A stretch of DNA of 55,717 nucleotides from Verrucomicrobiota bacterium (GTDB taxonomy: Bacteria > Verrucomicrobiota > Verrucomicrobiia > Opitutales > Seribacteraceae): positions 1 to 55,717 of the forward strand of contig JAQBYT010000025.1 in assembly GCA_027622665.1 (NCBI GenBank). The letters run 5' to 3'. Each line of letters opens with the position of its first letter. The first letter of the stretch is position 1. Of the stretch, positions 39,501 through 55,715 are shown piece after piece. The notes beneath the pieces are model-generated. The model was not told where the DNA came from. It saw only the letters and a list, made by a program, of their open reading frames with translations, and searched no databases. The position numbers were made by a program, and so were the translations under genes.

Positions 39501-39931
39501 ATGAGGTGCCCATCCATATTGCCGCCCCAAGTGATCGCCGCACTCAGCGTATGAACAATCTTGTGCCACAATCCGTCGTCGTGGTGCTCTCCCCCTTCGG
39601 CATGCTCGGCGTGTCCGGTTTCGGCGTGCTCCTCATGTCCGGGTTCGGCGTGTCCGGGTTCGGCGTGTCCGGGTTCGGCGTGCTCGGCGTGACCGGCTTC
39701 AGCGTGCTCGGCGGTAGCAGTGCCTGCCTTATCTATATAAATCCGATTCAGTCCTCCCATTCCCAAACCGATAAGCAAAAGAAGAACCGTAAACGGGAGA
39801 GGAACTTTCTTCAGAAAATGACTAGTCGCAGCCCCGACGACTAGCGCGAGAATCAAGAAGAAGAGACCGTATAAGTAACCGTGCCCACCAGAAGAGGCGA
39901 GAAGGGAAGGCGAAAGGGAAATTAAGTTCAT
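36584..39931 (-). CDS. CPA1 Na+/H+ antiporter with long cytoplasmic tail and cyclic-nucleotide-binding domain (SOS1/SLC9C-like)
   Basis: VFLPILIFEAG, SATDPVAVV, IEGESLLNDG, WWGGLRGAIGLAL and TLLVNATT, followed by a helical domain and a CNBD with IGEMAVLAGVPRTANV. Confidence 0.92.
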   Translation of the reverse strand: MNLISLSPSLLASSGGHGYLYGLFFLILALVVGAATSHFLKKVPLPFTVLLLLIGLGMGGLNRIYIDKAGTATAEHAEAGHAEHAEPGHAEPGHAEPGHEEHAETGHAEHAEGGEHHDDGLWHKIVHTLSAAITWGGNMDGHLILYVFLPILIFEAGFALDVHTFKKSVGNALYLAGPGIVTATLMTGLCFWGMVQFFGGEGGVLSQWHVDTPSAMSFVWLASMLLGAVASATDPVAVVALLKELGASKKLGTLIEGESLLNDGTAIVAFMLLIGLVTGAQIFTGLGDFVVDAALGFGSIGGAGALVGVLIGIVCILWLRKVFNDAMIEITLVLVTSYAVFFICEHFFQVSGVLGLVALGILMAGVGAKRISPEVAHFMHEFWELAAFISNVIIFIVVGVIIAQNVDPTGMDYVILCLIYLAIHLTRAINIAMFYPLMKRTGYGLPGKDAVVVWWGGLRGAIGLALALVVYSEHFHYEFELGSGGSGYKEATTSVFIVNKDDEAKHRGAEKTHLYKKLRLIASNSSSEAKATITNGKVTAISQDAHFAEKSLNSKTSTQEAMSIRDELASKDKVVIIVGEGSGAVATASLVGISSRVRDQFLFYISGVVLLTLLVNATTVKPLVNGLGLTALPAVKKLMFSNASGKVAKGCEQEMNLLKDDRFLGGANWGVVRKYLPDPVAYPLTADEVAGMDTLAETRRRLLQKESSSYWAQFREGLLSAQGVALLDNNLSEFLDLEGKAPLTQREYLDKVCGIPKLLEALKNVPVLKGMFVDRLTVSYDSAKAFVVAQQDVAKMVDGFVSDLDESGDPKKVTETANLLKNEIRENRLHGLNFLKEMHEAYPEVTVGIETKDAIRSVLNHERNTIKKLRKAGSLEADESDRLLLDVEERMKNVMESSLELRIPSPEEVLREVTWLKGLPDTVISQIVGLSEQRSYSSGQRIMDQGGAGDGMTVITGGSVKVSIGDLVVDIMGRGAVIGEMAVLAGVPRTANVVADTSVTSLWLTTESMQKAMTESSELSNSLWKTASIRFAENLLGNREPYRSWSQLELRRWLNSGNVLSPNDGETLNLYGKTSVLVTGQATAVAGGEAISAPAVLELSEARFSTGAKVFVRES
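39636..39682. repeat. 15-bp in-frame tandem repeat (TGTCCGGGTTCGGCG x3) encoding HAEPG
   Basis: Three perfect copies at 39636, 39651 and 39666, within degenerate copies spanning ~39581-39712. Confidence 0.9.
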
Positions 39932-39994
39932 GAGCAGGAAGTGGTTTTCGCAATATTCAACCAATCAAACCCCCATTGCCAAGGAAAAAGACCT

Positions 39995-40993
39995 TCAAGG
40001 CAATTCGAACAAACGCCCCGGCAAAGAGTGCTTCGGAGCAGGAGGGATTTTCCTTTGAGGGGGCTCGACAGAAGTTTTCAATAGTGAATCCGGGCGTGGA
40101 GAAACTCGGCTTGGAGGTCGTCCCAGAAATTCCTCCAAAGGGTTTGAAGAACTGGGTCGATCGGGAGAAGGCTGGACCGAGGCAGGCAGGGGGGCGGGCT
40201 GGGCAGTCTCATGGGGAACGGGGGCTACCGGCACTACCTCGAAAGTGTCGACTCCCTTCGCATCCCCCACAACGGCTCGAAAACGCTTTGCGATGGATTC
40301 GTCCTGAGCTTTTGTGACGATTGCCAAGGAACGCTCGAATGATGAAAGATTTTCGAAGCCACCGACCAGAAAAGAGGTCTTGGTCATTTTCCCCAAGTCA
40401 ACGTACACTAGGTCGCCAAATCCACGCCCACCGGGTTTAACAAAGAGTAATTCGCCCGGCAACAATTGAGTGGCTCGCTTGGACTGAACGTCAGTAACAC
40501 GAACTCGACCTAACATACCTACTATTTTAAGCCCACCATTCGGCTCCACTTCCAACATGACGGTTCCCATTCCATCCAAGGAGATTTCCGCTTCCGGACT
40601 CTTCAAGGTGAGCAATGCCCCCATCTTTCGGGTCCGATAGAGCAAGGACCCTTCATAGACCACAATGCCTTTCTCCTCGATCATAAAAATCGTCTCACTA
40701 CCAAAACGCAAGGTCCGCCCGGCCGCCAGGGTTTCCAAGCCACTCCTCGGTCGCACCGATACCCGCGCCCCTTGGGGGAGATAAGAAGCCCGACCCACGG
40801 TCTTGGCTCCATCGGAGGAACTAATTAATGCTCCATCACCGATAGTTGCGGAAACTAAGAAAAGATTTTTTGCTTCGCTATCGGAAATGAATGTCAACGC
40901 TAACCAAAATGCCGTACCGAAGAGGATGGTGCGCCAACCAAAAACGTTTCCAGACAATGTTAAATATGAATTCACGAACAAGCTCTTCTTCAT
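39995..40993 (-). CDS. Exported FecR-like domain protein with Pro-rich C-terminus
   Basis: Signal/TM segment, then FecR-like beta pattern (TLRFGSETIF, YEGSLL, GGLKIVGMLGRVRV, LLPGELLFV) and a Pro/Ser-rich tail. Confidence 0.7.
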   Translation of the reverse strand: MKKSLFVNSYLTLSGNVFGWRTILFGTAFWLALTFISDSEAKNLFLVSATIGDGALISSSDGAKTVGRASYLPQGARVSVRPRSGLETLAAGRTLRFGSETIFMIEEKGIVVYEGSLLYRTRKMGALLTLKSPEAEISLDGMGTVMLEVEPNGGLKIVGMLGRVRVTDVQSKRATQLLPGELLFVKPGGRGFGDLVYVDLGKMTKTSFLVGGFENLSSFERSLAIVTKAQDESIAKRFRAVVGDAKGVDTFEVVPVAPVPHETAQPAPLPASVQPSPDRPSSSNPLEEFLGRPPSRVSPRPDSLLKTSVEPPQRKIPPAPKHSLPGRLFELP

Positions 40994-41011
40994 GCCTAGC
41001 AATCCTCGAAA

Positions 41012-42151
41012 CTAGAAGCGGTAGTTCCCCGTCAAGGCGGCACCGATATCCCACGCTCGGAACTTGGAGGATTGATCCAACAAAGCTTCGCCCTTCTCGT
41101 TGGTGAACATTTTAGAATAATTAATGAATGTCTGAACACCCAGCCACTCACGAAACTGATAAATACCAGAGGCACCGAGAGTAAACAGGTAATCCACTCG
41201 ACCTTGGTGGTCATTGTTTTTGTAAGAAGTGCGAGCAAACCCAAGACTCGGCATTAACAAAAGTTTCCCGTCGGGTCCAAAGGAATGTATATAGGTCGCA
41301 TTGAGCGCAGTCTGAAGGTTGTCTCCATCATCGGCAAAGACGCCCGGAATGGGAAAGCCATCATAGCCATTTTGTATCACGCGTTTGGTATTGGCGTACT
41401 TGATCATCGAATCGATCATCAAGAACGATTTCTCGGTAAAGGGTAAGATTTTCTGGATCGAGAAAGTGGGTGCCACCGCATCGAACATTTTGTCTCCCGA
41501 GGAAATACTGCTCAGGTAATCGTACTCCAAACCTAATCCCAAACTCCAATCGTCGGGCAATCCAATGGCCGCCGAACCCTTGATCATGCTAAAATGATAC
41601 CCAAGCAAGTCCTTGACCGTTTTTTCCCCGTAATGGGCCCATTGAGTCATGTAGTCGATCCTGGGGATCAAAGTAATGTAATCACCAATTCTAGTGGGAC
41701 GAATGCCCAAGCCCGCTCCTGCATTGAATTCGTAGACGCCGGATCCCATGGTATTCGCTTTGGTGCGCAAAACGTTATTTGTGTAATACATGCGAGTTCC
41801 TGCAGACAAGGAGGCATTCAAAAGAGGTTCGCCCGTAGAAGTGGATGGCGAACCGGCGGCGCCATCCGGGGATAACCGAGGCGGAGGGACGTTTCCAGTG
41901 GCAGGAGGTGGAAGTGAATGTGTCGAGGGCACTGGTGATGCTGGCGCCACGGTGCGTAAAGGCACTCCCACCTCAACGATTTCCTGCAACCCCAAGTTGG
42001 AGTGAAAACCCTGAAATCCCGGACGGGAAGGTGTCGCGGCAGGAACGACAACGGCTTGCCCGAATGATTCACTTGAGACGAAGGCAAGATTCGCCAAGGC
42101 AAACAAAGAGGAGAGAGTAAGAATCCGGATGTGCAAAAGGCTGCGGGTCAT
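41012..42151 (-). CDS. Outer-membrane beta-barrel protein
   Basis: Signal peptide, Pro-rich linker, amphipathic strands starting YYTNNV, and a C-terminal beta-signal ALTGNYRF. Confidence 0.8.
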   Translation of the reverse strand: MTRSLLHIRILTLSSLFALANLAFVSSESFGQAVVVPAATPSRPGFQGFHSNLGLQEIVEVGVPLRTVAPASPVPSTHSLPPPATGNVPPPRLSPDGAAGSPSTSTGEPLLNASLSAGTRMYYTNNVLRTKANTMGSGVYEFNAGAGLGIRPTRIGDYITLIPRIDYMTQWAHYGEKTVKDLLGYHFSMIKGSAAIGLPDDWSLGLGLEYDYLSSISSGDKMFDAVAPTFSIQKILPFTEKSFLMIDSMIKYANTKRVIQNGYDGFPIPGVFADDGDNLQTALNATYIHSFGPDGKLLLMPSLGFARTSYKNNDHQGRVDYLFTLGASGIYQFREWLGVQTFINYSKMFTNEKGEALLDQSSKFRAWDIGAALTGNYRF

Positions 42152-42318
42152 CACGATAAATGAAAAGAAAATTCAATCATGGATAGACAGTCTTGCCAAT
42201 GATAATGTTTTTCTTGAACCGATCAAGAATTATGCAGTGATTGAACATTATTTCGGCCAAGGTTAAACGCAAGAGGAACGAGAAAAGAGAGCATGCCGAA
42301 AAGCCTGAAAGTCACGAC

Positions 42319-45300
42319 TCATCGAACTGTATCTTGAACCACATCTATCCACATCCCATCTGAATAGCGGAAAAGAAAGACTTTTCCAGAGGTAACACCA
42401 AGAAAATAGTGCCATCCGCCACCTTGCTGAAAGACATATGGATATAGGTCGCGAGAAGTCCAAAGCCAACCTAGGTTCTTCTGCCAGTACCAAAGTCCAC
42501 CGGACTCCTCGGGAAAGATGAACAACCACGCGTAATGTTCGTGGAAAACCCAATCCGTTTCTTCCGTCACTGCAAAATTTCCAAACCATGGACTAGCCCA
42601 CCAATTAGGGGCGTTGATGGGGTCCGACTCAGTACCGTTTGACCACATTTCAGTGTCATTGGTACTGTTCAGGTCAAACCTCTCCTGAGCACCGTATCCC
42701 GTCCCCTCTTCATGGGTCGAAAACGCTCGAGAATAATAACTCATAGAAGCCGACAAACCCGATATCTTTGCAGTGAAAGCACCCGTTCCAAAATCATCGA
42801 TGGCTGCGGTAATCGTTAATGTATTAGGAAGACCCAAAACAGGATCGGGGTCTCGGCTCACGACAAAGCCTCTTTCGGAAATGCCTGCAGTGTGACCAGC
42901 GTCTAGAAGGTCTCCAAAGAGAAGAGCTGAAGTGGTGTCCAATACGGTAACTCCATCAGTGTTCACATTCGGTAAAAAGGCATCCACGATCTCGAGGGGC
43001 AAAATCTGCTCGACAAAAGCCCCAAACTCGTCGGTTGAACGAATTCGAATGGAATAAGATGATTTCGTCTCGAAATCCAGTGCACCGTTCGAATAGAGGC
43101 TTCCATTAGCTTCCAGCTTGAAGAATCCGTTATCCGTCGAGCCCGGTCCCTCGACTAGGGAATAGGCATATGGCCTGGTCGAGTTTAGGTCGTCGGGATC
43201 CAAGGTCGACAAAACGTAAGCTAATTCGCTCGAAGTAAAACCTTCCTCTATTTGAACCACCTTCTGGGCAATTGAAGTGGGTGCGTCCTTGATTGTCAAA
43301 ACTTCCTCCACCCCTGTCCATGCCCCGTATTCATCTCCCCAACGAATTCGTATGGAATAAGATGAATTCGTCTCGAAATCCAGAGGCGAGGTCGAGCGCA
43401 AGGAACCATTGCTTTCCATGGTGAAGAACGCATTGTCCGTCGAACCCGTGCCGTCGACCAGAGAATAGGAATTGTTCGATTCACTGATATCGTAAGGCGA
43501 TAAGACGGCAACCGAGGAACCCGAGGCGAAACCATCACCCAATTGAATGATCCTTTGCTCAATTCCGATGGGGGCTTCATTGAACACTTCGACCCGACGG
43601 ACAAAGGGAATCGCATCGTTGCCGGTTGAATCCTTCGCCGAAAAGGTCAAGTCATAGATGCCGGGTACGTTGACCTCGGGCAATATGTCCACTTTTACGG
43701 CCAAGTTCCCCTCGAATGAATCGGTGGCAAGGACTCCCAAGTCCACGTAAGGTTGAAAAACTCGATGCCGAATACTCGAGTTTCCCTCGAAAGAGAGAAC
43801 GGGCGCGGTGGTGTCCCGCACTTGGACGGTTCGAATAACTTCCGTGGCAATGTTACCCGTAGCATCCGTCCGGGCGTAATTCAAAACGTAGGTGCCCAAC
43901 TTGCTCGCGTTCACCTCGCCGGTGGGGAGCACGGTACCGTTCCCATCCAGTATGTCAGACCAAACGGCCCCCGGATCGAGGTAAGTTTCGCCCGCTTCAT
44001 GCGAATAGGTAGCGTTTCCCTCTAGAGCAATCACCGGTGCGGTCGTGTCCGCAACTGTGATTTTACGCGTTTTCAAATACGCCACGTTCCCCGAGGAATC
44101 GGTGTGCGAATAGGTTATGTAGTAAACGTTTTGGCGACCCTTATTCACTCCGCCCTGCATTCCGGAGATGAGGATCGTTCCATTTCCATCGAGGTTGTCC
44201 GACCAAGTCGCGGTGGCGTCCACGTAAACGACACCCGCCTCGTGCGAGGCATTGGCATCTCCCGAGATAGTGATGACGGGGATTTCCGTGTCGACGACTG
44301 TCACCGTACGAGTCACTTGCGCGGCCACGTTGCCCGAGGTGTCGTTCAGGTCGTAACTCAAAACGTAAGTACCCAACTTGCTCCCGTTCACTTCTCCGGT
44401 GGGGATCACGGTTCCGTTTCGATCCACGATGTCGGTCCAAGTCGCATTGGCGTCAACGTACTCGGGACCTGCCTCGTAGGTCAGGTTGGCGTCACCGTTC
44501 AATATAATCACGGGTGGAGTCGTATCCACCACGGTCACCGTACGCGTCACTGAAGTGGCTGCATTGCCCGAGGTGTCGTTCAGGTCATAGGTCAAGACAT
44601 ACGTGCCCGGAACGTTCGCCAGTAAATTCCCCACGCCGTAAACAGTGACGTTGCTGTCGTTGTTGTCTACTCCAAGGGCTCCCGGATCGGAATAGGTCGC
44701 ATTTGCCTCGAAGGTCAAGTTGGCGTCTCCGTGCAAGGTGATCACGGGAGATTCGTCGTCCACGTCGGTCACGTTGATGACAAAGGCCTCTTCGTATATG
44801 GCGTTGTGGTTGTCAGTCACTCGAAGGCGAATACTCAAGGTGGCGTTCACCTCATAGTCCAGAGTTGCCGCCGTACTCAGGGTGCCGTTGGCATCGATAG
44901 TGAAAAAGGAGTGGTCAGTCGATCCGTTGCCGTCGACCAAGGAGAAAACCAAAGTGGCGTTTACGTCGTCGTCAGTGGCATTGAAGTCACCCACGATCGT
45001 GCCCACAGTCGCGTTTTCCTCGACGTACAGCGTCCCGTGGAAAATGTCTCGTGGAATGAAATTGAGCGATTTGACCAAGGTGATCAGGACTGAGCCGTTG
45101 CCATCGCTATATCCGGCCGCAGAAAATCCTTTGGAGTCCCCGTTGTAGGAACCGCCGCCTTGTCCAGCGAAGTCACTAGGATAATTAACCCCCCCATTGC
45201 CTCCGGAATAACCACCTCCGCCTCCGCCGAAACCTCCCAAATCCACCGAGACCGCTGCTCCACCTCCGCCAAAACCTCCGTCAAAATCGCTTGGTGAATC

Positions 45301-48300
45301 GGTTGGTGAAGCTCCACCCAGTCCGGAAGACGCAAAAGAACGTCCTCCAGAAAACCAATCTGAGGCACCATTTTCCAAACCGCCACCGCCGTTTCCGTTT
45401 CCTCCTCCCTTCAACTGGGACGCACCGAATATGTTCCACGGTCCGGGTAGTTCCTTTAGACTGGCATCTCCACCGGGTTGGTCACTCACCGCTCCACCGC
45501 CGCCGCCCGCAACCAACAAAGGAACATTATCGCTATAAGTAACAAAACTCCCTCCCCCCCCTCCGGAGCCGTTCCCGCCAGCATCCACACCTTCTTGTCC
45601 AACAAGAATCCTTAGTTTCATGGAAACGTTCAAATCGAAAACACCAACTGCCCGGGCGCCTTGTCCACCGGGTTGTCCACTCACCGAGCCACCTTTTGCC
45701 CCCAATACCTCGATCCTGTACAACGCCTTGTAGGGAACCGTCCACTCTTGAATGCCTTGGGTGTTCACAGTCACCGCGTCTTCAAGAGAGGTCCCTGTGT
45801 AGTTTGCGTCCACTTGTTCCTGAGTGGGTCCCGAACGTCCGGAAACTCCTGCGTTAGTGAAGTTCAGTGAGATCTCGTTCGAGTCATCCATCGCACTCTC
45901 GTTCGAGTCAGTAACCGTAACCGTAAACTCTTGGTCGGTGGACTTGTTGCCGTCACTGGCTCGCACGATCACTTCGTAGATATTGTCGAGATCTGCATCG
46001 TCGGGATGCTCGTAATCGGGATGAAGCTTGAACTGCAGCAAGCCGACGCTGGTGTTTACCTCCTCGCCCGAGTCAAGGCTTACCTCGATCGTACCCGTAG
46101 CATTGACTTCAAAAAGATCGCCATCCGCTCCACCTGAAATGGAATAGCTTATCGGATGTTCTTCGGGGTCATAGGCGGTAATCGTGGCAACTACGGAAGT
46201 GCCGTCGTTTTCGGCCTTTTCTTCCTTCACTGTGGCGTTAGCTTCGTAAGATGTAAAGGCAGGCGGATTTCCACCTTGGGTGGTTACGCCGGAAATCGTC
46301 CCGACGCCCGAGGATCGGACAACGTAGAAACCACTCCGATATACAAGATCTCCCAACCCGAGCTGCCCGTCGGCATTCCATCCGGTCGCCCAAAGGGAAT
46401 CGGTTTTAAGAATCAGGGAGTAGGACTGTCTTGCGGAAACTGCGGTCACGCTGGCACTCACGGCTTTTGTGGGATAGACGCGGTTAGTCGTGTCCCCAAA
46501 GCCCAACTGTCCCGAAACGTTTTGCCCCATCGACCACAGGGAACCACCGCTTTTTATGAAAAGACTGTGTTGGGCACCGGCTGCAATGGCAATTACTCCG
46601 AAAGGATAGACGGACGCAGGAGTAGCCCTGCTCGTCAGATTACCGTCGCCCAGCTGCCCGTAATCGTTGCGCCCGAAGGTCCAGAGCGAACCATTCCTTT
46701 TGAGGAACAAGCTATGCCCATCACCCGCAGCTACTGCGCTGACGTTGGCGTCTACTATTTTTATGGGCGAACTCCGATCAGTCGTATTTCCGTCCCCGAG
46801 CTGGCCGTAGGCATTCGAACCCATGCCCCAGAGAGAACCGTCCCCTTTCACGAACAAGGCATGGTCATGCCCCGCCGCAAAGCTAACCACGGTGTTAATG
46901 ATGTGAGTGGGCGTCAAACGTTGTGCCGTGTCACCAAGCCCGAGCTCGCCATTGTGGTTGAGCCCCATGCCATAAAGCGAGCCATTGTCCTCCAGATATA
47001 GGCTGAATCTGTTGCTTCCGCTCGCCGAAACCTCAGTCACCCCCGACGAGCGAATTTGAACCGAGGCATTCCGATCCAAAACCGTACCGTCCCCCAGTTG
47101 CCCGTTGGCGTTGTAGCCCATTCCCCACAGGGAACCGTCCGTCTTGACGAAAAGGCTGTAGTCGGCTCCTTCCGAGAACGATCTCACGGCCGAAGATTCG
47201 ATTTGCGAGGAAACGTTACGATCGGCCAAGCCCGGCAATCCCAGCTCGCCATTGTCGTTTTGCCCCATACCCCATAGGGAGCCATTTACGTCCGCGTACA
47301 GGCTGAAGCTAGATCCGTGTCCCTCCAAGACACCATGGCCGGACAAACGATAGGCGCCGGAAGCCACTACCTCGACGGACGATGTGCGATTGGCATCGTC
47401 TCCGAGCCCAAGCTGTCCATCCGAATTCAGGCCCATGGCCCGGAGGGAACCGTTCGCATCCAGATAGAAGGAATGCCCGGATCCTGCCGCCACCGCCGTC
47501 ACGTTGGCCTCGACGATCTCGACAAAACTGACGTTTCGATCCACATTCGTTCCGTCCCCCAGTTGACCGTGGGCGTTGTAACCCGCACCCCAAAGGGAAC
47601 CGTTCGCATCGAGATAGAAGGAGTGATTGGATCCTGCCGCCACCGCAGTTACGTTCGCTTCGACGACCCTGAAGCGAGTACTTCGGTCTGCGGTGTTGTC
47701 GTCTCCCAGTTGCCCGTGTGCATTGTACCCCATCGCCCATAGGGAGCCATCCCTCTTCAGGTAAAGGCTATGGCTTTCTCCCGCAGCAACTACGGACACT
47801 CCGGAAAACTCGATAGGTACCGGAGCGATCAAATTGTTGGTAAAGCCATTTCCCAGTTGACCGTTGGTGTTCAGTCCCACTGTCCAAAGCGATCCATCCG
47901 CCTTTACAAAGCAAGTGTGATGACCACCCGCGGCGATGGACACGACCCCTGCGACAACTACCCTTTGAGGGGCCGTCTGCTGCAGTCCGTTCCCATTGCC
48001 CAATTGTCCATAATCGTTTCTCCCCATGGTCCATAGCGATCCATCCCTCTTCAATAACACACTGTGGTGCATGCCTGCCGCCACCGCCGTCACGTTGGCG
48101 TCAACGATTTTCACGGATTGGTTGCGATCGATCAAGTCGCCAACTCCCAGTTGACCATATGAATTGTCGCCCATTGCCCACAAGGATCCGTCGTCCTGAA
48201 CGTAAAGAGTATGGTCCATCCCATGGGCAAAATCGACAACGCCTCCTCCCGTGGAGATTTTAAAAGGTTGGTTGCGGTCGGTGAGGCTTCCGTCGCCCAG

Positions 48301-48480
48301 TTGGCCCTTGTCATTGTCGCCCATGGCCCAAAGGGATCGATTCTCATCGACGTACAGAGAATAATTCCCCACTCCACCAAATGCCTGCAGGAAACCGAAG
48401 GCAAAAAGAGCGAGACTTAGCCCCAGTCCTCTCCGGGGAGGAATAGCGACTAATGGATCTAAATTACGGTTAGCGTACAT
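42319..48480 (-). CDS. Large modular surface protein: 14 RCC1 repeats, cadherin-like domains, ALK/LTK-type glycine-rich domain, 4 DUF5011 Ig-like domains, FN3-like domain, Trp-rich C-terminal domain
   Basis: Repeats (D/N)GSLWxMGxNxxGQLG, LDYE/LDFE cadherin motifs, DTTxPVIxLxG Ig repeats, GIQEWTVP...GGGGGSFV and terminal WWASPWFG...LGWLWT...YPYVF. Start at ATG 48480 is preferred. Confidence 0.9.
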   Translation of the reverse strand: MYANRNLDPLVAIPPRRGLGLSLALFAFGFLQAFGGVGNYSLYVDENRSLWAMGDNDKGQLGDGSLTDRNQPFKISTGGGVVDFAHGMDHTLYVQDDGSLWAMGDNSYGQLGVGDLIDRNQSVKIVDANVTAVAAGMHHSVLLKRDGSLWTMGRNDYGQLGNGNGLQQTAPQRVVVAGVVSIAAGGHHTCFVKADGSLWTVGLNTNGQLGNGFTNNLIAPVPIEFSGVSVVAAGESHSLYLKRDGSLWAMGYNAHGQLGDDNTADRSTRFRVVEANVTAVAAGSNHSFYLDANGSLWGAGYNAHGQLGDGTNVDRNVSFVEIVEANVTAVAAGSGHSFYLDANGSLRAMGLNSDGQLGLGDDANRTSSVEVVASGAYRLSGHGVLEGHGSSFSLYADVNGSLWGMGQNDNGELGLPGLADRNVSSQIESSAVRSFSEGADYSLFVKTDGSLWGMGYNANGQLGDGTVLDRNASVQIRSSGVTEVSASGSNRFSLYLEDNGSLYGMGLNHNGELGLGDTAQRLTPTHIINTVVSFAAGHDHALFVKGDGSLWGMGSNAYGQLGDGNTTDRSSPIKIVDANVSAVAAGDGHSLFLKRNGSLWTFGRNDYGQLGDGNLTSRATPASVYPFGVIAIAAGAQHSLFIKSGGSLWSMGQNVSGQLGFGDTTNRVYPTKAVSASVTAVSARQSYSLILKTDSLWATGWNADGQLGLGDLVYRSGFYVVRSSGVGTISGVTTQGGNPPAFTSYEANATVKEEKAENDGTSVVATITAYDPEEHPISYSISGGADGDLFEVNATGTIEVSLDSGEEVNTSVGLLQFKLHPDYEHPDDADLDNIYEVIVRASDGNKSTDQEFTVTVTDSNESAMDDSNEISLNFTNAGVSGRSGPTQEQVDANYTGTSLEDAVTVNTQGIQEWTVPYKALYRIEVLGAKGGSVSGQPGGQGARAVGVFDLNVSMKLRILVGQEGVDAGGNGSGGGGGSFVTYSDNVPLLVAGGGGGAVSDQPGGDASLKELPGPWNIFGASQLKGGGNGNGGGGLENGASDWFSGGRSFASSGLGGASPTDSPSDFDGGFGGGGAAVSVDLGGFGGGGGGYSGGNGGVNYPSDFAGQGGGSYNGDSKGFSAAGYSDGNGSVLITLVKSLNFIPRDIFHGTLYVEENATVGTIVGDFNATDDDVNATLVFSLVDGNGSTDHSFFTIDANGTLSTAATLDYEVNATLSIRLRVTDNHNAIYEEAFVINVTDVDDESPVITLHGDANLTFEANATYSDPGALGVDNNDSNVTVYGVGNLLANVPGTYVLTYDLNDTSGNAATSVTRTVTVVDTTPPVIILNGDANLTYEAGPEYVDANATWTDIVDRNGTVIPTGEVNGSKLGTYVLSYDLNDTSGNVAAQVTRTVTVVDTEIPVITISGDANASHEAGVVYVDATATWSDNLDGNGTILISGMQGGVNKGRQNVYYITYSHTDSSGNVAYLKTRKITVADTTAPVIALEGNATYSHEAGETYLDPGAVWSDILDGNGTVLPTGEVNASKLGTYVLNYARTDATGNIATEVIRTVQVRDTTAPVLSFEGNSSIRHRVFQPYVDLGVLATDSFEGNLAVKVDILPEVNVPGIYDLTFSAKDSTGNDAIPFVRRVEVFNEAPIGIEQRIIQLGDGFASGSSVAVLSPYDISESNNSYSLVDGTGSTDNAFFTMESNGSLRSTSPLDFETNSSYSIRIRWGDEYGAWTGVEEVLTIKDAPTSIAQKVVQIEEGFTSSELAYVLSTLDPDDLNSTRPYAYSLVEGPGSTDNGFFKLEANGSLYSNGALDFETKSSYSIRIRSTDEFGAFVEQILPLEIVDAFLPNVNTDGVTVLDTTSALLFGDLLDAGHTAGISERGFVVSRDPDPVLGLPNTLTITAAIDDFGTGAFTAKISGLSASMSYYSRAFSTHEEGTGYGAQERFDLNSTNDTEMWSNGTESDPINAPNWWASPWFGNFAVTEETDWVFHEHYAWLFIFPEESGGLWYWQKNLGWLWTSRDLYPYVFQQGGGWHYFLGVTSGKVFLFRYSDGMWIDVVQDTVR
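43038..43383. repeat. Near-identical 43-bp direct repeat between adjacent cadherin domains
   Basis: 43038-43080 and 43341-43383 differ at 2 of 43 positions, with an in-frame 303-bp offset. Confidence 0.8.
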
Positions 48481-48650
48481 CCTTATGAATAGAGCGAACC
48501 ACGAACAACGGAAAGCGGGCAAGGATCAAAAGTGGGAGTCCAGCATTAGAATTAATCGTTTAGCCGCCATTTCGTCAATGGATTTTAACGCCAATCAAGA
48601 CCGTCGCTAAATCCGTCTGAACTCAAGGATCGGCACGCAATTGGCAAGCC

Positions 48651-50999
48651 CTACCTCAACTTGCCAATTGTTATCTTGCCACCGAAGGAATCGAAACTAG
48701 GTCGATCGTGCAGGAGATTCACGCCGGACTTCACATTCTGCAGGAAGTTAACGCGCCCCAGTTGCTGGGCTGCGGGAATCGATGTGCCGAAATTCGGATA
48801 ACGACCGTCGATGGCTCCCTTGAGGCTGTTCAGGTTTACTGCGGCATTGGCGGGAAAAGTTATGTTCGAAAGTCGAATCGTCGTGGCCTCCATCACGATC
48901 TTCGGTAGCTGGGCGTTGAATCGCATGTTGTCCACGTACAATTCTTTGGCCGCCTTGATTGTCGCCAGCTGGGAGGCACTCACATCTATGTTTCTGAGAT
49001 TCACGTCCCTCATGGAATGGAGGGTCACCTCACGATTTCCTTGCAGAAACACGGGCAACTCCGCCGTCGCACCCTGCAATACAATGTCCCGCCTCACCGA
49101 AAGCACCAAGTCGTTCGTGGCCGCGTCTAGGGTCAAGTCGCTCGAACCCTCAAGCTCACCCCCGCTCATCAGCACCACCCGCTTGGCGCTCCCCGCGTCG
49201 CCCGAAAAAAGGATGTTTCCTTGCAATTGCAATTGTTCCGTGGCTCCCAAGGCAAAAGCATCCGATCCGCTTAGGGCGAGGCTGCTCAACGAGTAATTTC
49301 CGCCCGACAGGGATATCGTTCGCCCGCCAAGGAAGGAGGTTTCCCCCGCCAAGAGGGAATCCTGGACCAATGCCCCGTAGAGGGACGTCACGTCTTCGTA
49401 AAACCGATTGGCCAGGGCATCCGCTCCCGTTACGAGATTGGCTCCGTCCAAGAAACCCGTGCTCGTCACCCCACCCAGCAAACGGTTGGCGATATCTCCT
49501 TCTTTCAGCAACTCGTCGGTCAATTGTCCGTCACCCAGTTTCAGTAATTCGTCAAGCACTTCGGAATTGCCGGAGTCCCTAAGTTGGTTCGCTAGGGCGA
49601 GAAAAGGATCGGCTGTCGTGGAAACGGAAGGAGTCTGGGGAGTTACTTCCGTATTGAGGGCAAGCAGGTTCTGATCCGAGAGAAGTCCCGTCAGCCAAGA
49701 CTCCTCGTACTCCTTTGACAACAGGTTGGCCAAGCTAGAGTCATCCACCAAGGCGATCATCTTGGTCCGGGTTTCTCCCGAGTAACCGAAGAAGGTGGAG
49801 AGATTGGACTCAACAACGCCTTTGGAAGTCAAGTCGATCAATCGCTTGGCGGTTTTGTCGCCCGCCGCAACCAACGCGCTTTGCAAGGACAGCTCGAAGG
49901 AATAGAGAATCTCCGCCTGGGCATCCGTCAATCCGAGTCGAGACACTTGGTTGGACTCGGCGCTCACCTTCCCCGTCTTGCGGGATTGGGTGGCTTCGGA
50001 ATTGTTCTCAAGCACTTGGCTCGTATCTACGGCAGGGGCATTCGGAGTTGAAGCAGCAGCACTCGGTCCGGCTGAATCTCCTCCGCCAGAATCTCCGTTT
50101 CCGGTATCTTCGCTACCCCCGGTATTACTATCTCCACCCGAGTCGGAATCACCGGAACCGCCACTATCGTCACCACCATCGGAACCGCCATCATCGCCCC
50201 CGTCATCTCCGCCATCGCTATCTCCGCCGTCGCCGCCTTCACTGGTGGCCTCGGTCATGGCGTCGCTCACCGCACTCAGGGAAACGTCACCCGTGGCTGC
50301 AATGGCCGCCGTGTTGGTCGCGGTTATGTTTTGCGCTGCCACCGGGCTTATGGGACGTGGGGTGACCGCCCCTGCGGCGGAAACGTCAAGGCCTTGTCCG
50401 GCGCCCACGGGTACGGGTTGACCGCCTCCGGGGGGGGTGAACGCCACGGTGGACTCGGAAACGTCTAGTTTCACTCCCGTGCCTGGAGCTTGTGACATCT
50501 GAAACTGGGTGCCGCGTATGCCCGCAACGCCCGTGGAAGAATGAATGTTCAGCCGCGATTCGCGGTCCAGTTTCTTGGTCGACACCACGATTGAGCCCCA
50601 GTCTAGGTCGAGCTTCACGTTCGACTTGCTTGGCTCTTCCGCCAAGTCCGAAACCTTCCTGCCCGCGGCATCGAAGGGCTCCTGGGAAAATTCGCTTATC
50701 TTCAGTTTCGTTTGCGACTCCAGGGTCATCACCGTGCCATTTGAGAACAACACCACGATCTTCCCGCCGATCCCAGCTTGGGCTACGCAGCCCTCGGGGA
50801 GGGTTCCCCCTACCCCCGTCTTGGCGGCCGGCAAAACCTTACCCTGAGGATCGAGAAATTGGGTTGGACCTTCCTTGGCCGCAATGAACACCACCCCGCG
50901 GCCGGTACCTTTCTTAGGCGCCTGCCCCCAAAGCAAGGGAAGCAGGCAAAGGGAAAAGATGGCGTAGATGGAAAAGGTTTTCATTCGGGTCGTGATCAT
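48651..50999 (-). CDS. Exported FecR-domain protein with Gly/Asp/Ser linker and probable beta-helical C-terminus
   Basis: Signal peptide; FecR motifs VLFSNGTVMTL and SSTGVAGIRGTQF; GGDDGG linker; strand-rich C-terminus. The ATG overlaps the upstream stop (ATGA). Confidence 0.85.
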   Translation of the reverse strand: MITTRMKTFSIYAIFSLCLLPLLWGQAPKKGTGRGVVFIAAKEGPTQFLDPQGKVLPAAKTGVGGTLPEGCVAQAGIGGKIVVLFSNGTVMTLESQTKLKISEFSQEPFDAAGRKVSDLAEEPSKSNVKLDLDWGSIVVSTKKLDRESRLNIHSSTGVAGIRGTQFQMSQAPGTGVKLDVSESTVAFTPPGGGQPVPVGAGQGLDVSAAGAVTPRPISPVAAQNITATNTAAIAATGDVSLSAVSDAMTEATSEGGDGGDSDGGDDGGDDGGSDGGDDSGGSGDSDSGGDSNTGGSEDTGNGDSGGGDSAGPSAAASTPNAPAVDTSQVLENNSEATQSRKTGKVSAESNQVSRLGLTDAQAEILYSFELSLQSALVAAGDKTAKRLIDLTSKGVVESNLSTFFGYSGETRTKMIALVDDSSLANLLSKEYEESWLTGLLSDQNLLALNTEVTPQTPSVSTTADPFLALANQLRDSGNSEVLDELLKLGDGQLTDELLKEGDIANRLLGGVTSTGFLDGANLVTGADALANRFYEDVTSLYGALVQDSLLAGETSFLGGRTISLSGGNYSLSSLALSGSDAFALGATEQLQLQGNILFSGDAGSAKRVVLMSGGELEGSSDLTLDAATNDLVLSVRRDIVLQGATAELPVFLQGNREVTLHSMRDVNLRNIDVSASQLATIKAAKELYVDNMRFNAQLPKIVMEATTIRLSNITFPANAAVNLNSLKGAIDGRYPNFGTSIPAAQQLGRVNFLQNVKSGVNLLHDRPSFDSFGGKITIGKLR

Positions 51000-53900
51000 T
51001 TGCGCTCCGTTCCCTCGGCCACGTCAAACCAAGAAGAATCCGCGTAGCGATAGATAAACACCCTACCCGCGGTGTCGCCAAGCAAGAAACCCCAGCCTTT
51101 TTCGGCATTTAGGAAGATGTACGGGTATACACCCTCGGCCGTCCAAAGCCAACCTAGATTTTCCTGCCAGAGCCAAACCCCGCCCGCCCCGTCGTCCACC
51201 GCGAAGAGCCAGCCAATCGTCTCGTGCCGCATCCATCCGTTCTTGCCGAGAAAGAAGCTCCCGAACCACTGGCTCGTCCACCAATCGGCGGCTTGTCCCG
51301 ATGCCTGAGCGCTCGCCCAGGCCGGTCCCGTCGGCTCCTTGATCGCCGTAAACCGTTCCTGCGAACCGAAGCTTTCCCCCTCCGCGTTCTTGGCGAAGGC
51401 GCGATAATAATACTTCTTTCCTGCAACCAAGTTGTTCGGAGTCGCCTCGAACTGTCCCAAGCCCAACCCGGCCTCGAGTACCGTCACCCCGAAGCCGCCC
51501 GGCTCGGGGTCTGGATGCCGGCCAAGAACTATGCCTCGTTCCGTCGAAACGTGACTGCTGCCGTCGTCCAGCACCTCGCCGCCCAGCAGGAAGGTTCCTT
51601 CGGTGGCTCCCGCTTTCGGCTCGATCGTTTCCACGATGGGAACGAAGGCGTCGATCACGTTCACCGCAAAAGCCTTCTCGAGCGATGTTGCGTTAGCCTC
51701 CGCCCGTACCCTCACCGAATGACTGTCCTTCGTTTCGAAATCGAGTGCTTGAACCGTCCTCAGGGTGCCGTTCGCCTCCAGGGTGAAGAGAGCGTTGTCG
51801 TCACCGCCCGCTCCCGAAACGAGGCTGAAGGAAACCGGCGAGGTTTCGCCTTGCCCAGAGAATACGGCCGACACCACGCCCGCAAAGGCTCCCGCGGGAA
51901 GGTTCTCCGCCACGCTTCCTCCCGTCAGAAAAAGATCAGCCAAAGACGGATTTGTCTCTTCGGGTGGAATTGAATCGTCTTTCGGTCTCTCGACGGTAAA
52001 GGCATGAGACATCTCCACGGCTTCAGAGAAATGAGAGTCACCTGTCTGCTTCGCGGTAATTGTTGCAGTACCCTCCTTCAAGGCTACTAATTCACCATTA
52101 TCAACCTTGATGACCGAGGGATCCGAGCTAACGAAAGTCAAAGGCAATCCCGAAGTGGCGTAAGCAATATTATTTGCTGTAGAACCAAGGACAATAGCGT
52201 CCTCTTCCTCGAACACTATGGATTGCAATCCACCGAAACTTGGGGGTTGATTCCGGAAGGCATGAGTGGATGGAAGGCTGCCTGCAAAACCCCACTTGTG
52301 ACCGAGATAACCTTCCAACCTACGAATGTTCCAATCGTCCAATGCGACGTCAAAGACGAGCACTTCGAGGATTGCTCCGTCGAAAAAGTTGTTCAGAGCG
52401 CCAGTTGCTCCCCGACCGGAACCTAGCAAAACCTCACGGTTTCCCGTGGAAGGAATATTCAAGGTGTTCGATTCATTTGTTGCGGTGCCGACAAGGGGTG
52501 TTCCGTTTCTGAAGAAATCTCCATCGGCATAAGTACTCGGGGTACTTCGACGATACACCCCTATGGTTTTTGCGTTCATGAAATTGCCATCGAAGGCCAG
52601 TTTCCCGTTGTTGTAGTTGAATGAGCTATCTTGAGTCAGCCCCAACACTTGTCCCGCAGTTCCGCTGGTTGCTCCGAAATGAACTAGGTTGCTGGAGGAA
52701 TCATTCGCCGACATAGCGGCAACCAGTACCGTAATTGAAGGACTTCCTTTTAGTGCAGCTTCCAAGTTCCCCTGCAAATGAGTGGCCTCGTTCGAAGTCA
52801 ATGTCGGACCAAACGCGACGAAGGGCTTCATAATCGAATTTCCTAGGCTTGCTAAGTAATCCGGCATCTTGGAAGGGTCGCTTTGAGACAAATGATTTCC
52901 ATTGCCCGAACGGTCACTCCATACATCCACTTTGGCGACGCCATTTATTTGCGTGAAGTCCGAGACACTCTCTGCTTGGCCATCTGCATTTACGTCGGTT
53001 CCGTCCCACCACGAAGACAACCCGGCCACCGAATCTTCGTACAGGTTGAATTCATTCACATTTATTGTAAAAGTCTTGCCGACTGCCGCATCGTATCCAC
53101 CTCCACCCAATTGTGAAGCCGTAATGGTAGCGACACCACCGTCCAGTAAACGCACCATACGACCTCCCGCAACAATCACGGCCACACTTTCGTCGGAACT
53201 TGAATAAGTGATAGGCAGGCCGGTGGCTAGGTTGGTGTCGCCGTTAAGCGATTTGGCTCCGGGATCGAAATCAAAATCTCTAGCGCTCATAAACAAAGAC
53301 GGAAGCTCGTCTCCACCAATGCCGTTTACGATTTTTTGGGGAAGATCATCGAGGACGTCCGACACCGTCACCCCGCGGGTGACCGATGCCACATTGCCCG
53401 CCAAGTCCGATACGGAATAAGTCAACGAGTAAGATCCCTTCGTTCCCGCCTGCACCGTTCCCGATACCGTCACCGAGGTCGTAAGGTCGCCGTCCACCGC
53501 GTCCGTGGCGGTGTATCCCGGTTCCGTCCAAGTGGTATTGACCTCGTGAGTGCCGTTGGCATTGCCAACCAAGGTGATGACTGGGGCCTCTTCGTCGAGG
53601 TCGAGCACTTTTATGGTCAGGGTGGCGGCCGCGGTTCGGTTGTAGTCGTCCTTCACCTGTACTCGCGCCCGACGCTCGGACGCCGCTTCGTAGTCCAGCT
53701 CCGCCGTGGTGGTCAGGCTGCCGTTGGCGTCGATGGCGAATAGAGAATTGTCGAGGGTCGATCCGTTCGCCTCCGCCACGAGGGCGTAGGCGTAGGTGCG
53801 GTTGCCGTCGGGGTCGGTGAAGGTAAGCTTGCCCGCGAAGGTTCCCGCGGGTTGGTTCTCGCTCACCTCGCCGGGCGCAAAAGAAAAATTCGTCGGCAGC

Positions 53901-54604
53901 CATGCGGGCAGCGACTGGTCGTCCAGCGGGTCGGAGCCCGCCGCCTGTTCCTTGGCGTCGGAAAAACCGTCCCCGTCCGTGTCCGCGTTCAGGTCGCTCG
54001 TCCCGAGGCTCTCCTCCTCGCCCTCGTTGAGGCCGTCGGCGTCGGCGTCCTCCAAGTCGTCGTCCAGGATGGCGATTGAAAACGCCTTCTCCACGTACCC
54101 GCCGTTCGGGTCCGTCGCCCTCACCGTCACATGGCGGGTGGCGTTGGCCTCGTGGTCGAGGATCGCCCCCGTGGTCAAGTTGCTCCCGCCGACCGCGAAT
54201 CGTCCGCCCGCATCGTCCGTCAGGGAGAAGGTCGGGTTGTCCATATGGGTCACCGACAAGGCCCCCACCACGGTTCCGATCGACAAGTTTTCCGCCACCG
54301 AGGCGTTCGCCAAGGTCAGCTCCGAAGCAGGCCCCGAGAACAGCACCGCGGGAGCCTCTGAGGTGGATTCCACAGTCCCGCTCGCATTGGACGACCTCCG
54401 TCCCACCCAGTGCAAAGTTCCGAAGTTCCCCACCGTGCCCAGCTCGTTGACCGAGCTTCCCGCCGACGGCAGAATGTACTCCACCTCTATCCGCACGCCC
54501 GTCCCGTTCGCCTCCCGCAGGGCAGCCTCCGCAGGCGGGCATGCCGCCCATGCCGCGAGGATTGTCGCGGTGGCGGTGAACAGGCTATGTCGGGAAAGGT
54601 TCAT
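50996..54604 (-). CDS. Modular surface protein: cadherin, TSP3-like Ca-binding repeat, DUF5011, Ig-like, LamG-like, FN3-like and Trp-rich C-terminal domain
   Basis: Signal peptide ending AEA; DADADGL/DTDGDGFSD; WSDRSGNGNH...FDGAILEVLVF...EGYLGHKWG; same C-terminal module as 42319..48480. Confidence 0.88.
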   Translation of the reverse strand: MNLSRHSLFTATATILAAWAACPPAEAALREANGTGVRIEVEYILPSAGSSVNELGTVGNFGTLHWVGRRSSNASGTVESTSEAPAVLFSGPASELTLANASVAENLSIGTVVGALSVTHMDNPTFSLTDDAGGRFAVGGSNLTTGAILDHEANATRHVTVRATDPNGGYVEKAFSIAILDDDLEDADADGLNEGEEESLGTSDLNADTDGDGFSDAKEQAAGSDPLDDQSLPAWLPTNFSFAPGEVSENQPAGTFAGKLTFTDPDGNRTYAYALVAEANGSTLDNSLFAIDANGSLTTTAELDYEAASERRARVQVKDDYNRTAAATLTIKVLDLDEEAPVITLVGNANGTHEVNTTWTEPGYTATDAVDGDLTTSVTVSGTVQAGTKGSYSLTYSVSDLAGNVASVTRGVTVSDVLDDLPQKIVNGIGGDELPSLFMSARDFDFDPGAKSLNGDTNLATGLPITYSSSDESVAVIVAGGRMVRLLDGGVATITASQLGGGGYDAAVGKTFTINVNEFNLYEDSVAGLSSWWDGTDVNADGQAESVSDFTQINGVAKVDVWSDRSGNGNHLSQSDPSKMPDYLASLGNSIMKPFVAFGPTLTSNEATHLQGNLEAALKGSPSITVLVAAMSANDSSSNLVHFGATSGTAGQVLGLTQDSSFNYNNGKLAFDGNFMNAKTIGVYRRSTPSTYADGDFFRNGTPLVGTATNESNTLNIPSTGNREVLLGSGRGATGALNNFFDGAILEVLVFDVALDDWNIRRLEGYLGHKWGFAGSLPSTHAFRNQPPSFGGLQSIVFEEEDAIVLGSTANNIAYATSGLPLTFVSSDPSVIKVDNGELVALKEGTATITAKQTGDSHFSEAVEMSHAFTVERPKDDSIPPEETNPSLADLFLTGGSVAENLPAGAFAGVVSAVFSGQGETSPVSFSLVSGAGGDDNALFTLEANGTLRTVQALDFETKDSHSVRVRAEANATSLEKAFAVNVIDAFVPIVETIEPKAGATEGTFLLGGEVLDDGSSHVSTERGIVLGRHPDPEPGGFGVTVLEAGLGLGQFEATPNNLVAGKKYYYRAFAKNAEGESFGSQERFTAIKEPTGPAWASAQASGQAADWWTSQWFGSFFLGKNGWMRHETIGWLFAVDDGAGGVWLWQENLGWLWTAEGVYPYIFLNAEKGWGFLLGDTAGRVFIYRYADSSWFDVAEGTERK

Positions 54605-54629
54605 TCAGTGGTTACTTTTCAAGTGTTCC

Positions 54630-55715
54630 TCAGTTGCTTCGCTGCACGAGGCGGAAGCCGCGGTGAGGGCTTACGTTGCTCGGGGTCACGTGGCGCCTGT
54701 ATCGCACCTCCTGCACGGCCTCGCTGAAGTGCTCGCCGCGGAATCCCCGATGGGTGATGTTCGACGGAGAGCCCGACCATGGGCCTCCCGACCACACGCT
54801 CTTGGGATCGTTCGACGTCCAGTACACGGCGCTGATCGCGGTGGTTGGGTTGTTGGTCAACGGGGCGGGCTTCATGTAGATGCGGAGCTTCTTGGGTTTT
54901 CCGATTGGGGCGACCTTGGGGAGAAACTTCTCGAAGTCCGCTTCCGCGTAGGTCTTGGTCTCGTTGCCGTCGAGGAGGGCGAACCAGATCTCGTCGCCCG
55001 CCTCGCGGGTGGCGTCGATCTTCACCTTGAAGTGGGTGGAGTTCTCCTCGTACTGGGGCAGGCTGAAGGTGACGTACGACACGGGGTCGGCCATGTGGTG
55101 GTAGGGGCGACGCAGGATGGATGTGCGGCGCTCGTGGACGTAGGCGGTGGGATTGGTCGTGTCGATATAGGCCTGCACCTCGATTCGCTTCACGGGCTTT
55201 TCCTTCTGCGGGTTGTCGTACCACATGGGGACGTAGGTTTCGGAAGTCGTGGTGTTGGTGGAGGCGTCGTTGGTCGTGTTGTCGTCGTAGACGTACCGTA
55301 TGCGGCAATAGGCGGTGCCCGTATTGGCTCGCCTTATTTCGTTCATCACGCCTTCCAGTTTCTCGGGGGCGGGCAGGGTGATCACCTTGACCGTCTCGTA
55401 GGCGGTGCGGGCGCGCAGGGTCGCCTCAACGTTGTAGGTGTCGGCAGTCGTGACCGGCGTGAGGTCCAAGGGGCGGAAACGGGTGTTTCGCTCGTAGGCT
55501 TCAAGATAGTAGTCGCTATTATATCCTTTCAGCCAGACCGCCACCTTGGTCACGGTTTTCTCGGGCGATGGGTTGGCGTAGTTGGAAACCGTGTCGAAGG
55601 TCGAGCCGGTATCCGTCGCTTCCGTGCTGTTGGCATCCGATCCGTCGGAATAGGTGTACTCGATCTTGCAGTAGGTGGCGTATCCGTTGGTCTCGTTGCG
55701 AAGCTCGTTGAACAC
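54630..55715 (-). CDS. 5'-truncated protein with an internal ~125-aa repeat and an FGE/SUMF1-like C-terminal end
   Basis: The frame is open to the window edge. It has two homologous units (NELR...YCKIEYTYSD...NPSPEKTVTKVAV / NEIR...YCRIRYVYDD...NPQKEKPVKRIEV) and ends R...P......GFRLV as FGE-sulfatase domains do. Confidence 0.65.
   Translation of the reverse strand: MFNELRNETNGYATYCKIEYTYSDGSDANSTEATDTGSTFDTVSNYANPSPEKTVTKVAVWLKGYNSDYYLEAYERNTRFRPLDLTPVTTADTYNVEATLRARTAYETVKVITLPAPEKLEGVMNEIRRANTGTAYCRIRYVYDDNTTNDASTNTTTSETYVPMWYDNPQKEKPVKRIEVQAYIDTTNPTAYVHERRTSILRRPYHHMADPVSYVTFSLPQYEENSTHFKVKIDATREAGDEIWFALLDGNETKTYAEADFEKFLPKVAPIGKPKKLRIYMKPAPLTNNPTTAISAVYWTSNDPKSVWSGGPWSGSPSNITHRGFRGEHFSEAVQEVRYRRHVTPSNVSPHRGFRLVQRSN

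Follow-up and report, generated by a model that had tools for sequence, protein, structure and literature searches.

In this study, which was based on a contig of 55,717 nucleotides from a Verrucomicrobiota genome (the window, i.e., the whole stretch of DNA that was analysed), we examined a group of surface-protein genes whose products are rich in the acceptor motif of PglB, the bacterial oligosaccharyltransferase of asparagine-linked glycosylation (N-glycosylation), as well as the pglB gene that is found elsewhere in the same genome. The window is the entire contig C12 of a genome of 4.52 Mb that is 93.5% complete. The original prediction, which was made from the letters of the window alone, took the organism for a probable verrucomicrobium; it belongs to the Opitutales, and its family (hereafter, the family) is probably Candidatus Seribacteraceae, which we take to be identical with MB11C04. 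Throughout the text, N-X-S/T in which X is not P is called the plain sequon and D/E-X-N-X-S/T the extended sequon.

Sequons of the surface proteins in the window

An exported surface protein of 2067 amino acids (aa) is encoded on the minus strand at 42319..48522, with a possible alternative ATG start at 48480. The manual estimate of about 52 extended sites among about 61 sequons proved to be exact, as 52 of its 61 sequons are extended, compared with a mean of 2.5 in 300 composition shuffles; 52 was reached in none of 2000 shuffles, the highest of which had 10. Pfam assigns to the protein RCC1 repeats, cadherin domains, an ALK/LTK Gly-rich domain and PF16403 immunoglobulin-like (Ig-like) repeats, and the extended sequons are spread over all of these unrelated folds, as had been claimed. 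In the 14 RCC1-like repeats (residues 52-745; 46288..48369, minus strand) 16 of the 20 sequons are extended and occupy four fixed loop positions per repeat. The cadherin-like and Gly-rich ALK/LTK-like domains that follow (residues 761-1158; 45049..46242, minus strand) have 8 of 10, i.e., 5/5 in the first cadherin and 3/5 in the Gly-rich domain. The stretch consisting of a second cadherin, five Ig-like (PF16403) and two further cadherin-like domains (residues 1159-1850; 42973..45048, minus strand) has 27 of 28 (6/7, 16/16 and 5/5, respectively). The protein ends in a Trp-rich domain of about 105 aa without a Pfam match (42322..42657, minus strand), the single sequon of which is not extended. 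The 2067-aa protein is predicted to be the main substrate of PglB.

Two further reading frames on the minus strand have the same bias. In the 1202-aa exported protein (50996..54604; cadherin, TSP3, Ig-like domains and a Trp-rich tail) 9 of the 19 sequons are extended, a number that was reached in none of 2000 shuffles; the nine sites given previously stand, while the total of 18 has to be corrected to 19. The 361-aa frame at 54630..55715, which is truncated at the end of the contig and represents the 3' portion of its gene, has 4 of 8, as counted previously (reached in 2 of 2000 shuffles), and is a paralogue of a 1638-aa protein (C42:25801-30714) with 56 of its 69 sequons extended. The absence of bias that had been noted in two other proteins was also confirmed: glycogen phosphorylase (GlgP) has 0 of 6 extended sequons, and the 782-aa exported FecR-domain protein (48651..50999, minus strand) has 1 of 6, a value reached by 1047 of 2000 shuffles, which makes it an internal negative control.

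The PglB enzyme

A PglB-like oligosaccharyltransferase had been expected outside the window and was found on contig C43, where the minus strand encodes a protein of 1086 aa (pglB, G000:C43:2660-5920), the sole STT3-family match in the genome. Both the STT3 membrane domain (PF02516, 71.9 bits against a cut-off of 24.5) and the core domain (PF21436, 74.7 bits against 23) were recognised, and the protein scored below the cut-off of the NCBIfam equivalog NF050801 (196.6 vs 1300 bits). Its best solved relative by sequence is the PglB of Campylobacter lari (E 5e-43), and databases already label some of its homologues as STT3-type transferases. A model built from a 144-row alignment had a predicted local distance difference test score (pLDDT) of 92.7, compared with 41 for a single-sequence fold, and its top Foldseek matches were 6GXC, 5OGL and 3RCE (E 1e-31 to 6e-30, template-modelling scores of 0.71-0.72 by target length), with STT3B and AglB at E ~1e-11.

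Alignment to C. lari PglB showed that the acidic catalytic residues D123, D225, D227 and E451 are present; the first three correspond to D56, D154 and D156 of C. lari. Across the 144 aligned proteins D123, R218, D225, D227 and R529 are kept in all, E451 in 143 and R463 in 140, while W630, W631 and D632 of the WWDxG motif (W630-W631-D632-Y-G) are kept in 142, 144 and 142, respectively. The profile alignment places the T-x-x-E451...R463 segment on E319...R331 of C. lari, and R463, which lies 12 residues after E451, is invariant in 12 family proteins. In C. lari R331 is the proposed partner of the acid at -2 (PMC4894442). Near the C terminus, in the periplasmic part of the model, there is a beta-alpha-alpha-beta insert (residues 988-1033; L002:2822-2959), which matches LysM in three of the six family homologues that were scanned, one of them over the cut-off; Pfam did not detect LysM in the insert of this genome's own PglB. 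Such a LysM-like insert could tether PglB to peptidoglycan or bind glycan. Judged by sequence and fold, from which its transferase function is deduced, the genome encodes an intact PglB of the STT3/PglB family, which appears to work like Campylobacter PglB but outside a strict pgl-locus system.

Genome-wide signature

Our own frame caller yielded 3207 proteins with a total of 6933 sequons, 1672 of them extended; enrichment at a Poisson p < 1e-5 was seen in 34 of the proteins. The proteins were classed by hydrophobicity alone, a rough rule that uses no signal-peptide predictor, and the association of D/E at -2 with S/T at +2 around Asn was assessed with a 2x2 test on counts de-duplicated on 9-mers. 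The two positions were coupled in the 875 proteins with an N-terminal hydrophobic segment (the exported class; 651/2355 extended, odds ratio (OR) 2.77, p 4e-76), in all of their size classes, as well as in 243 multi-pass membrane proteins (95/365, OR 3.22), 31 proteins cut at the 5' end (231/456, OR 6.48) and 583 unclassed proteins (336/1464, OR 2.29). The 1475 soluble proteins without a signal, i.e., the cytoplasmic class, gave 273/2059 (OR 1.13, p 0.09). The proteome-wide comparison of secreted and cytoplasmic proteins, which the original prediction had proposed, therefore found the bias in the former and not in the latter.

Replacing the central Asn by D, G or K gave no positive coupling in any class, and Q had a weak effect in the soluble class only (OR 1.22, p 0.016). 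Genome-wide, an acid at offsets -4, -3, -1, +3 or +4 was not coupled either. Pro is found at about one fifth of its background at -1 (11/893) and +1 (14/893), which matches the requirement of the PglB rule, and sequons that lack the acid show no enrichment in the exported proteins (11.6% vs 11.5%). The coupling persisted after the removal of N-G (OR 2.63); Gly at +3 was not enriched (72/879 vs 174/1925), nor was D-x-D-x-S/T in the genome-wide test. The excess amounts to about 780 distinct extended sites in the genome, 27 of which are in the soluble class, and the carriers include housekeeping proteins of the envelope such as SecDF, YidC, SecG, an ExbB/MotA protein, an FKBP and an outer-membrane efflux protein.

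Matched controls

All of the comparisons between the family and other genomes represent one phylogenetic contrast, in which kin are not independent. In random 20-kb regions the exported proteins of three family genomes had 62 of 243 sequons extended (OR 2.84, p 6e-9), compared with 38 of 323 in five PglB-negative genomes (OR 1.20, p 0.33), and the cytoplasmic proteins had an OR of 1.0 in both groups. The choice of YidC and SecDF was guided by the sequons they have in this genome, which itself was left out of the counts; one YidC and two SecDF control loci were left out and one family YidC was not found. In YidC 42 of 89 sequons are extended, with such sites in 14 of 14 family genomes, versus 1 of 54 in 1 of 14 other genomes. 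In SecDF, with one shared conserved motif removed, there are 29 extended sites in 15 of 15 family genomes versus 3 in 3 of 13 others. The YidC sequons vary in sequence between genera yet persist, which would imply ongoing selection. The YidC of this genome (L120:1-2097) additionally has a C-terminal DnaJ domain, and its orthologues in the family are similarly long.

Homologous domains from PglB-negative taxa had fewer extended sequons than those of this genome. Of the 37 sequons in 25 RCC1 repeats of this genome 25 are extended, versus none of the 83 sequons in the 116 repeats taken from 21 other genomes of Verrucomicrobiota. The RCC1 hairpin of the controls reads K-x-D-G in 39 cases and D/E-x-N-G in none, while both forms occur here, K-x-D-G 10 times and D/E-x-N-G 5 times. 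Cadherin and Ig homologues of eight genomes have 3 of 16 versus 61 of 68 in the aligned parts of the query, counted with repetition. Proteins with the Trp-rich tail, which were compared at 30 loci per group, have 160 of 275 sequons extended in the 15,823 aa from 15 family genomes (OR 7.5) and 5 of 78 in the 15,674 aa from seven other Opitutales genomes (OR 0.54), five of which lack a PglB match by profile, while the other two had none in the survey of the family and 24 other Opitutales families.

Distribution, neighbourhood and origin of pglB

Apart from the present genome, 36 genomes of the family were surveyed and PglB was found in 31 of them, while it was found in none of the 24 genomes that represent 24 other Opitutales families. 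In three of the five misses the contig is broken within the gene that lies upstream of pglB, and the other two genomes (51% and 86% complete) do not have that gene either. Over 300 Opitutales genomes PF02516 matched strongly in 16 of 20 family genomes and weakly in 12 of 280 others. In the comparison that had been proposed, the enrichment tracks the presence of the oligosaccharyltransferase across Opitutales: among the Opitutales genomes surveyed PglB was found in the family only, and the controls without it are not enriched. The 12 weak matches were rejected as PglB, being distant GT-C proteins or, in one case, a false match; no WWDxG was seen in the portion fetched, although several of the frames extend beyond the locus. 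Weak PF02516 matches of this kind are also present in four of the control genomes (G128, G167, G270 and G299). The distant STT3-like membrane proteins of other Opitutales (L049-L053, L057 and L061), which have no WWDxG in the stretch seen, are in some cases fused to an N terminus that, read by eye, resembles a Ser/Thr kinase or DnaJ.

Two largely overlapping samples of 400 Verrucomicrobiota genomes contained no close PglB relatives outside the family; two genomes of another Verrucomicrobiota family (f74) have a distant, WWDNG-type oligosaccharyltransferase (L116 and L117). A metagenome scan for a second PglB lineage gave one short locus (L349). Three PglB-like proteins of 1549-2213 aa (P0143, P0149 and P0161) have very large membrane inserts ahead of the WWDYG domain. 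In a FastTree tree of 11 of the 57 family rows, 60 of the 87 other rows and two outgroup sequences, the family enzymes form one clade (1.00) within a clade (1.00) that holds 15 other proteins. Related PglBs occur in clusters with members labelled Pedosphaera, Limisphaerales or Verrucomicrobiales, and two such clusters are among these 15 neighbours. The wider surroundings are PglBs of about 700 aa, with one cluster labelled Campylobacterales, and the deep nodes are weak. The simple reading is that pglB would have been gained in the ancestor of the family; the tree does not establish the donor.

At 54 loci pglB has recurring neighbours, with a MotA-like gene upstream in 44, a coiled-coil gene upstream in 44 and a FecR-domain gene downstream in 41. 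The coiled-coil gene is also present in 15 genomes of other families, 14 times beside the MotA-like gene, and no pglB was found in the up to 1.5 kb fetched downstream of it. The MotA-like/coiled-coil pair (L002:5979-9984), which has no family match, is conserved in Opitutales, and in Seribacteraceae-type genomes, i.e., the family studied here, pglB lies directly behind it. The MotA-like gene encodes a protein of 764 aa, in which a MotA-like membrane end was read by eye with no Pfam match, and 119 of its 165 sequons across the family are extended; the coiled-coil protein has an Asp within its membrane segment. Directly downstream of pglB an FG-GAP repeat protein (L002:1-2435, i.e., C43:1-2435) runs off the contig with 43 of its 45 sequons extended. 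It ends in a long tandem repeat of eight residues, every unit of which is an extended sequon, and this repeat holds most of its sequons.

Other features of the window

The Trp-rich domain of about 105 aa, which is usually C-terminal (42322-42657 and 50999-51337 in the window), has 36 copies in the genome, between 8 and 30 matches per genome in 15 genomes of the family, and matches in 7 of 40 other Opitutales. It belongs to no Pfam family and its Atlas neighbours are labelled only "hypothetical", with low recognition; it is a candidate surface-sorting or anchoring domain. A FecR-domain gene is interleaved with the surface-protein genes, which are followed by a weak match to an outer-membrane barrel (PF13505, E 0.008) and by an exported protein of 335 aa (39995-42154 and 48651-50999 for these additional features); FecR-domain paralogues also flank pglB in the family. 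Elsewhere in the window, a 1909-aa protein without a Pfam match (16215-21944), which has no sequon bias (1 of 8 extended), is encoded downstream of the nuo operon, and an 1126-aa Na+/H+ exchanger (36584-39964) contains a His-rich repeat as well as a cyclic-nucleotide-binding domain at its C terminus.

Discussion

The data show an intact pglB, the PglB acceptor rule in exported proteins only and the co-occurrence of the two across Opitutales. On the strength of these sequence data, N-glycosylation in this organism and its family is very probably a general periplasmic pathway like that of Campylobacter PglB. A lipid-linked glycan, a flippase and the periplasmic transfer by PglB are established in Campylobacter (PMC6025236, PMC9816155). 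By analogy with that pathway, the glycan would be assembled on undecaprenyl diphosphate in the cytoplasm and flipped, and PglB would transfer it to the Asn of D/E-X-N-X-S/T as the proteins leave Sec, with Arg463 reading the acid at -2 and the WWD motif reading the Ser/Thr. The comparisons further suggest that, after the ancestral gain of pglB, exposed loops may have acquired sequons by point change, as in the RCC1 hairpin, in which K-x-D-G would have become D-x-N-G. Selection may then have given few sequons to housekeeping proteins such as YidC and SecDF and tens to the giant surface proteins, which would bear a dense glycan coat; speculatively, this coat could stabilise long proteins and shield them from proteases, phages or grazers. 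The chances are about even for a more far-reaching version, according to which most of the 50-80 sequons per giant surface protein are occupied and form an N-glycan shield like that of eukaryotes and archaea, the work is done by a LysM-bearing, high-throughput PglB unlinked to glycan genes, and related PglBs are scattered in other Verrucomicrobiota lineages.

The extended sequon could also be a purely structural motif, i.e., a D-x-N-G/A-S/T turn, cap or calcium-loop sequence of the RCC1, cadherin and Ig folds that was multiplied by duplication, with PglB being incidental. The location of the sites at hairpins and loops, the prevalence of G and A at +1, the tandem repeats that account for the count in some proteins (C43:1-2435) and the one D-A-N-x-T of SecDF that is a motif conserved in both groups would all suit this idea. 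It is nevertheless highly improbable, as the coupling was obtained on counts de-duplicated on 9-mers and outlasts the removal of N-G, neither Gly at +3 nor D-x-D-x-S/T is enriched, and the same folds in PglB-negative Verrucomicrobiota are almost devoid of the motif in RCC1 (0/83) and poor in it in cadherin and Ig (3/16). The calcium-loop and turn explanations were rejected by the substitution, N-G and matched-fold controls, and the matched folds and the Trp-tail proteins already largely refute the structural origin. A different possibility is that the enzyme is active at low occupancy or that the signal is a relic, so that most sites of the giant proteins are unmodified today. The excess of about 780 sites would all fall to a single enzyme, and folded domains limit the access of PglB (PMC6025236). 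On the other hand, pglB is intact, its catalytic residues are invariant across the family, and the YidC sequons that change between genera and still persist would speak for selection that continues. Contigs of four of four marine RNA libraries (four studies) also cover parts of pglB with 90-100% likeness, which speaks against a relic and for our explanation, although such contigs carry no control for DNA carry-over and cannot prove its transcription. We regard low occupancy or a relic as unlikely, if somewhat less so than the structural origin.

The sequons could, moreover, be read by another enzyme, or PglB could transfer a glycan that is not dedicated to it, e.g., an O-antigen-like repeat or one of an exopolysaccharide, which another pathway would use as well. 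In favour of this, pglB is unlinked to glycan genes, and the genome has three PF02397 transferases and several polysaccharide clusters. Against it, there is a single STT3-family match in the genome, and the lack of enrichment of plain N-X-S/T argues against a relaxed or cytoplasmic N-glycosyltransferase, while a shared donor would still mean N-glycosylation by PglB; there is very little chance that this alternative is correct. A candidate for the donor pathway is a cluster at C13:29693-41488, unlinked to pglB and with many paralogues in the genome, which holds an ABC exporter, a 227-aa PF02397 transferase, a dehydratase and a LegC-family aminotransferase. The best match of the exporter is PglK (192 bits vs a cut-off of 1000, with 480 of 582 residues scanned).

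General N-glycosylation by PglB thus remains our preferred explanation, and several observations weigh against it. The flippase and glycosyltransferase neighbours that the original prediction had envisaged were not found, and no glycan genes recur beside pglB in the 54 loci. Paralogues of the donor pathway are so abundant (16 genome matches each to PF02719 and PF01041) that no single assignment is possible. The co-occurrence of PglB and the bias is a single evolutionary event. The exported FecR-domain proteins are not enriched (36/311 extended), one random region of the genome G009 has 0 of 7, and the Trp-tail proteins of three family genomes are low (0/10, 1/7 and 2/14). A conserved Arg is not always enough to impose the rule at -2 (PMC4894442). 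Additionally, the exported proteins of 79 other PglB loci, which served as a positive control, were uncoupled (38/369, OR 1.06), and hence the presence of PglB alone does not yield the signal in flanking genes; these loci are mostly of low GC content (median 35%) and flanked mostly by glycan-synthesis genes, so that they do not make a valid positive control.

If the explanation holds, free-living marine Verrucomicrobiota have a system that follows the strict rule, with a density of sites far above the Campylobacter figures, and they offer a natural record of a proteome that acquired sequons after the arrival of the enzyme. Glycopeptides of these bacteria would escape ordinary searches of marine metaproteomes, this PglB is a candidate for use in glycoengineering at multiple sites, and the sequon test needs no more than sequence data to point to N-glycosylation in lineages that are uncultured. 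Most of what has been described of enzyme-mediated N-glycosylation in bacteria comes from Campylobacterota, Desulfobacterota and several vent bacteria, which are few (PMC4894442, PMC6025236, PMC12229607). In the literature searched there was no report of PglB-type N-glycosylation in Verrucomicrobiota, although the gene may be listed in supplementary genome tables or in articles behind a subscription, among them the one that describes the family; the main text of PMC8857213 mentions neither glycosylation nor PglB.

The closest known counterparts are the PglBs of C. lari and Campylobacter jejuni (3RCE, 5OGL, 6GXC and 3AAG), which share the single-subunit STT3-family fold and catalytic residues with the enzyme described here. 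The acceptor rule of the Campylobacter pgl system, D/E-X-N-X-S/T with X not Pro, is the same (PMC6478998, PMC12229607), and its substrates are likewise exported and membrane proteins, which in our case is deduced from the signature. The differences are that the present PglB belongs to another phylum, has 1086 rather than about 713 aa, shares 22-23% identity in the structural alignment, carries the LysM-like insert and is not surrounded by a pgl locus. They also concern scale: C. jejuni has from 53 to more than 60 glycoproteins (PMC6478998, PMC6025236), and in Campylobacter hepaticus 9 of 33 glycoproteins have two or more sites (PMC9816155), while the density of predicted sites is far higher here, with 52 in a single protein and an excess of about 780 in the genome. 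A precedent for an unlinked pglB is Helicobacter pullorum, in which the pgl genes are found in several loci and the sequon is the same (PMC6025236); it has two pglB genes, whereas here there is one match per genome in nearly all cases and the glycan genes are candidates. The PglBs of Desulfovibrio (Desulfobacterota) are also bacterial single-subunit enzymes outside Campylobacterota, but they relax the rule at -2 (PMC4894442, PMC12229607), in contrast to the strict rule without an excess of plain sequons that was observed here. Archaeal AglB and eukaryotic STT3 belong to the same superfamily and have the same fold, but they are much more distant, with 12-14% identity, and recognise N-X-S/T with no need for an acid, unlike the PglB rule followed here. 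In archaea, surface proteins with heavy N-glycosylation are known.

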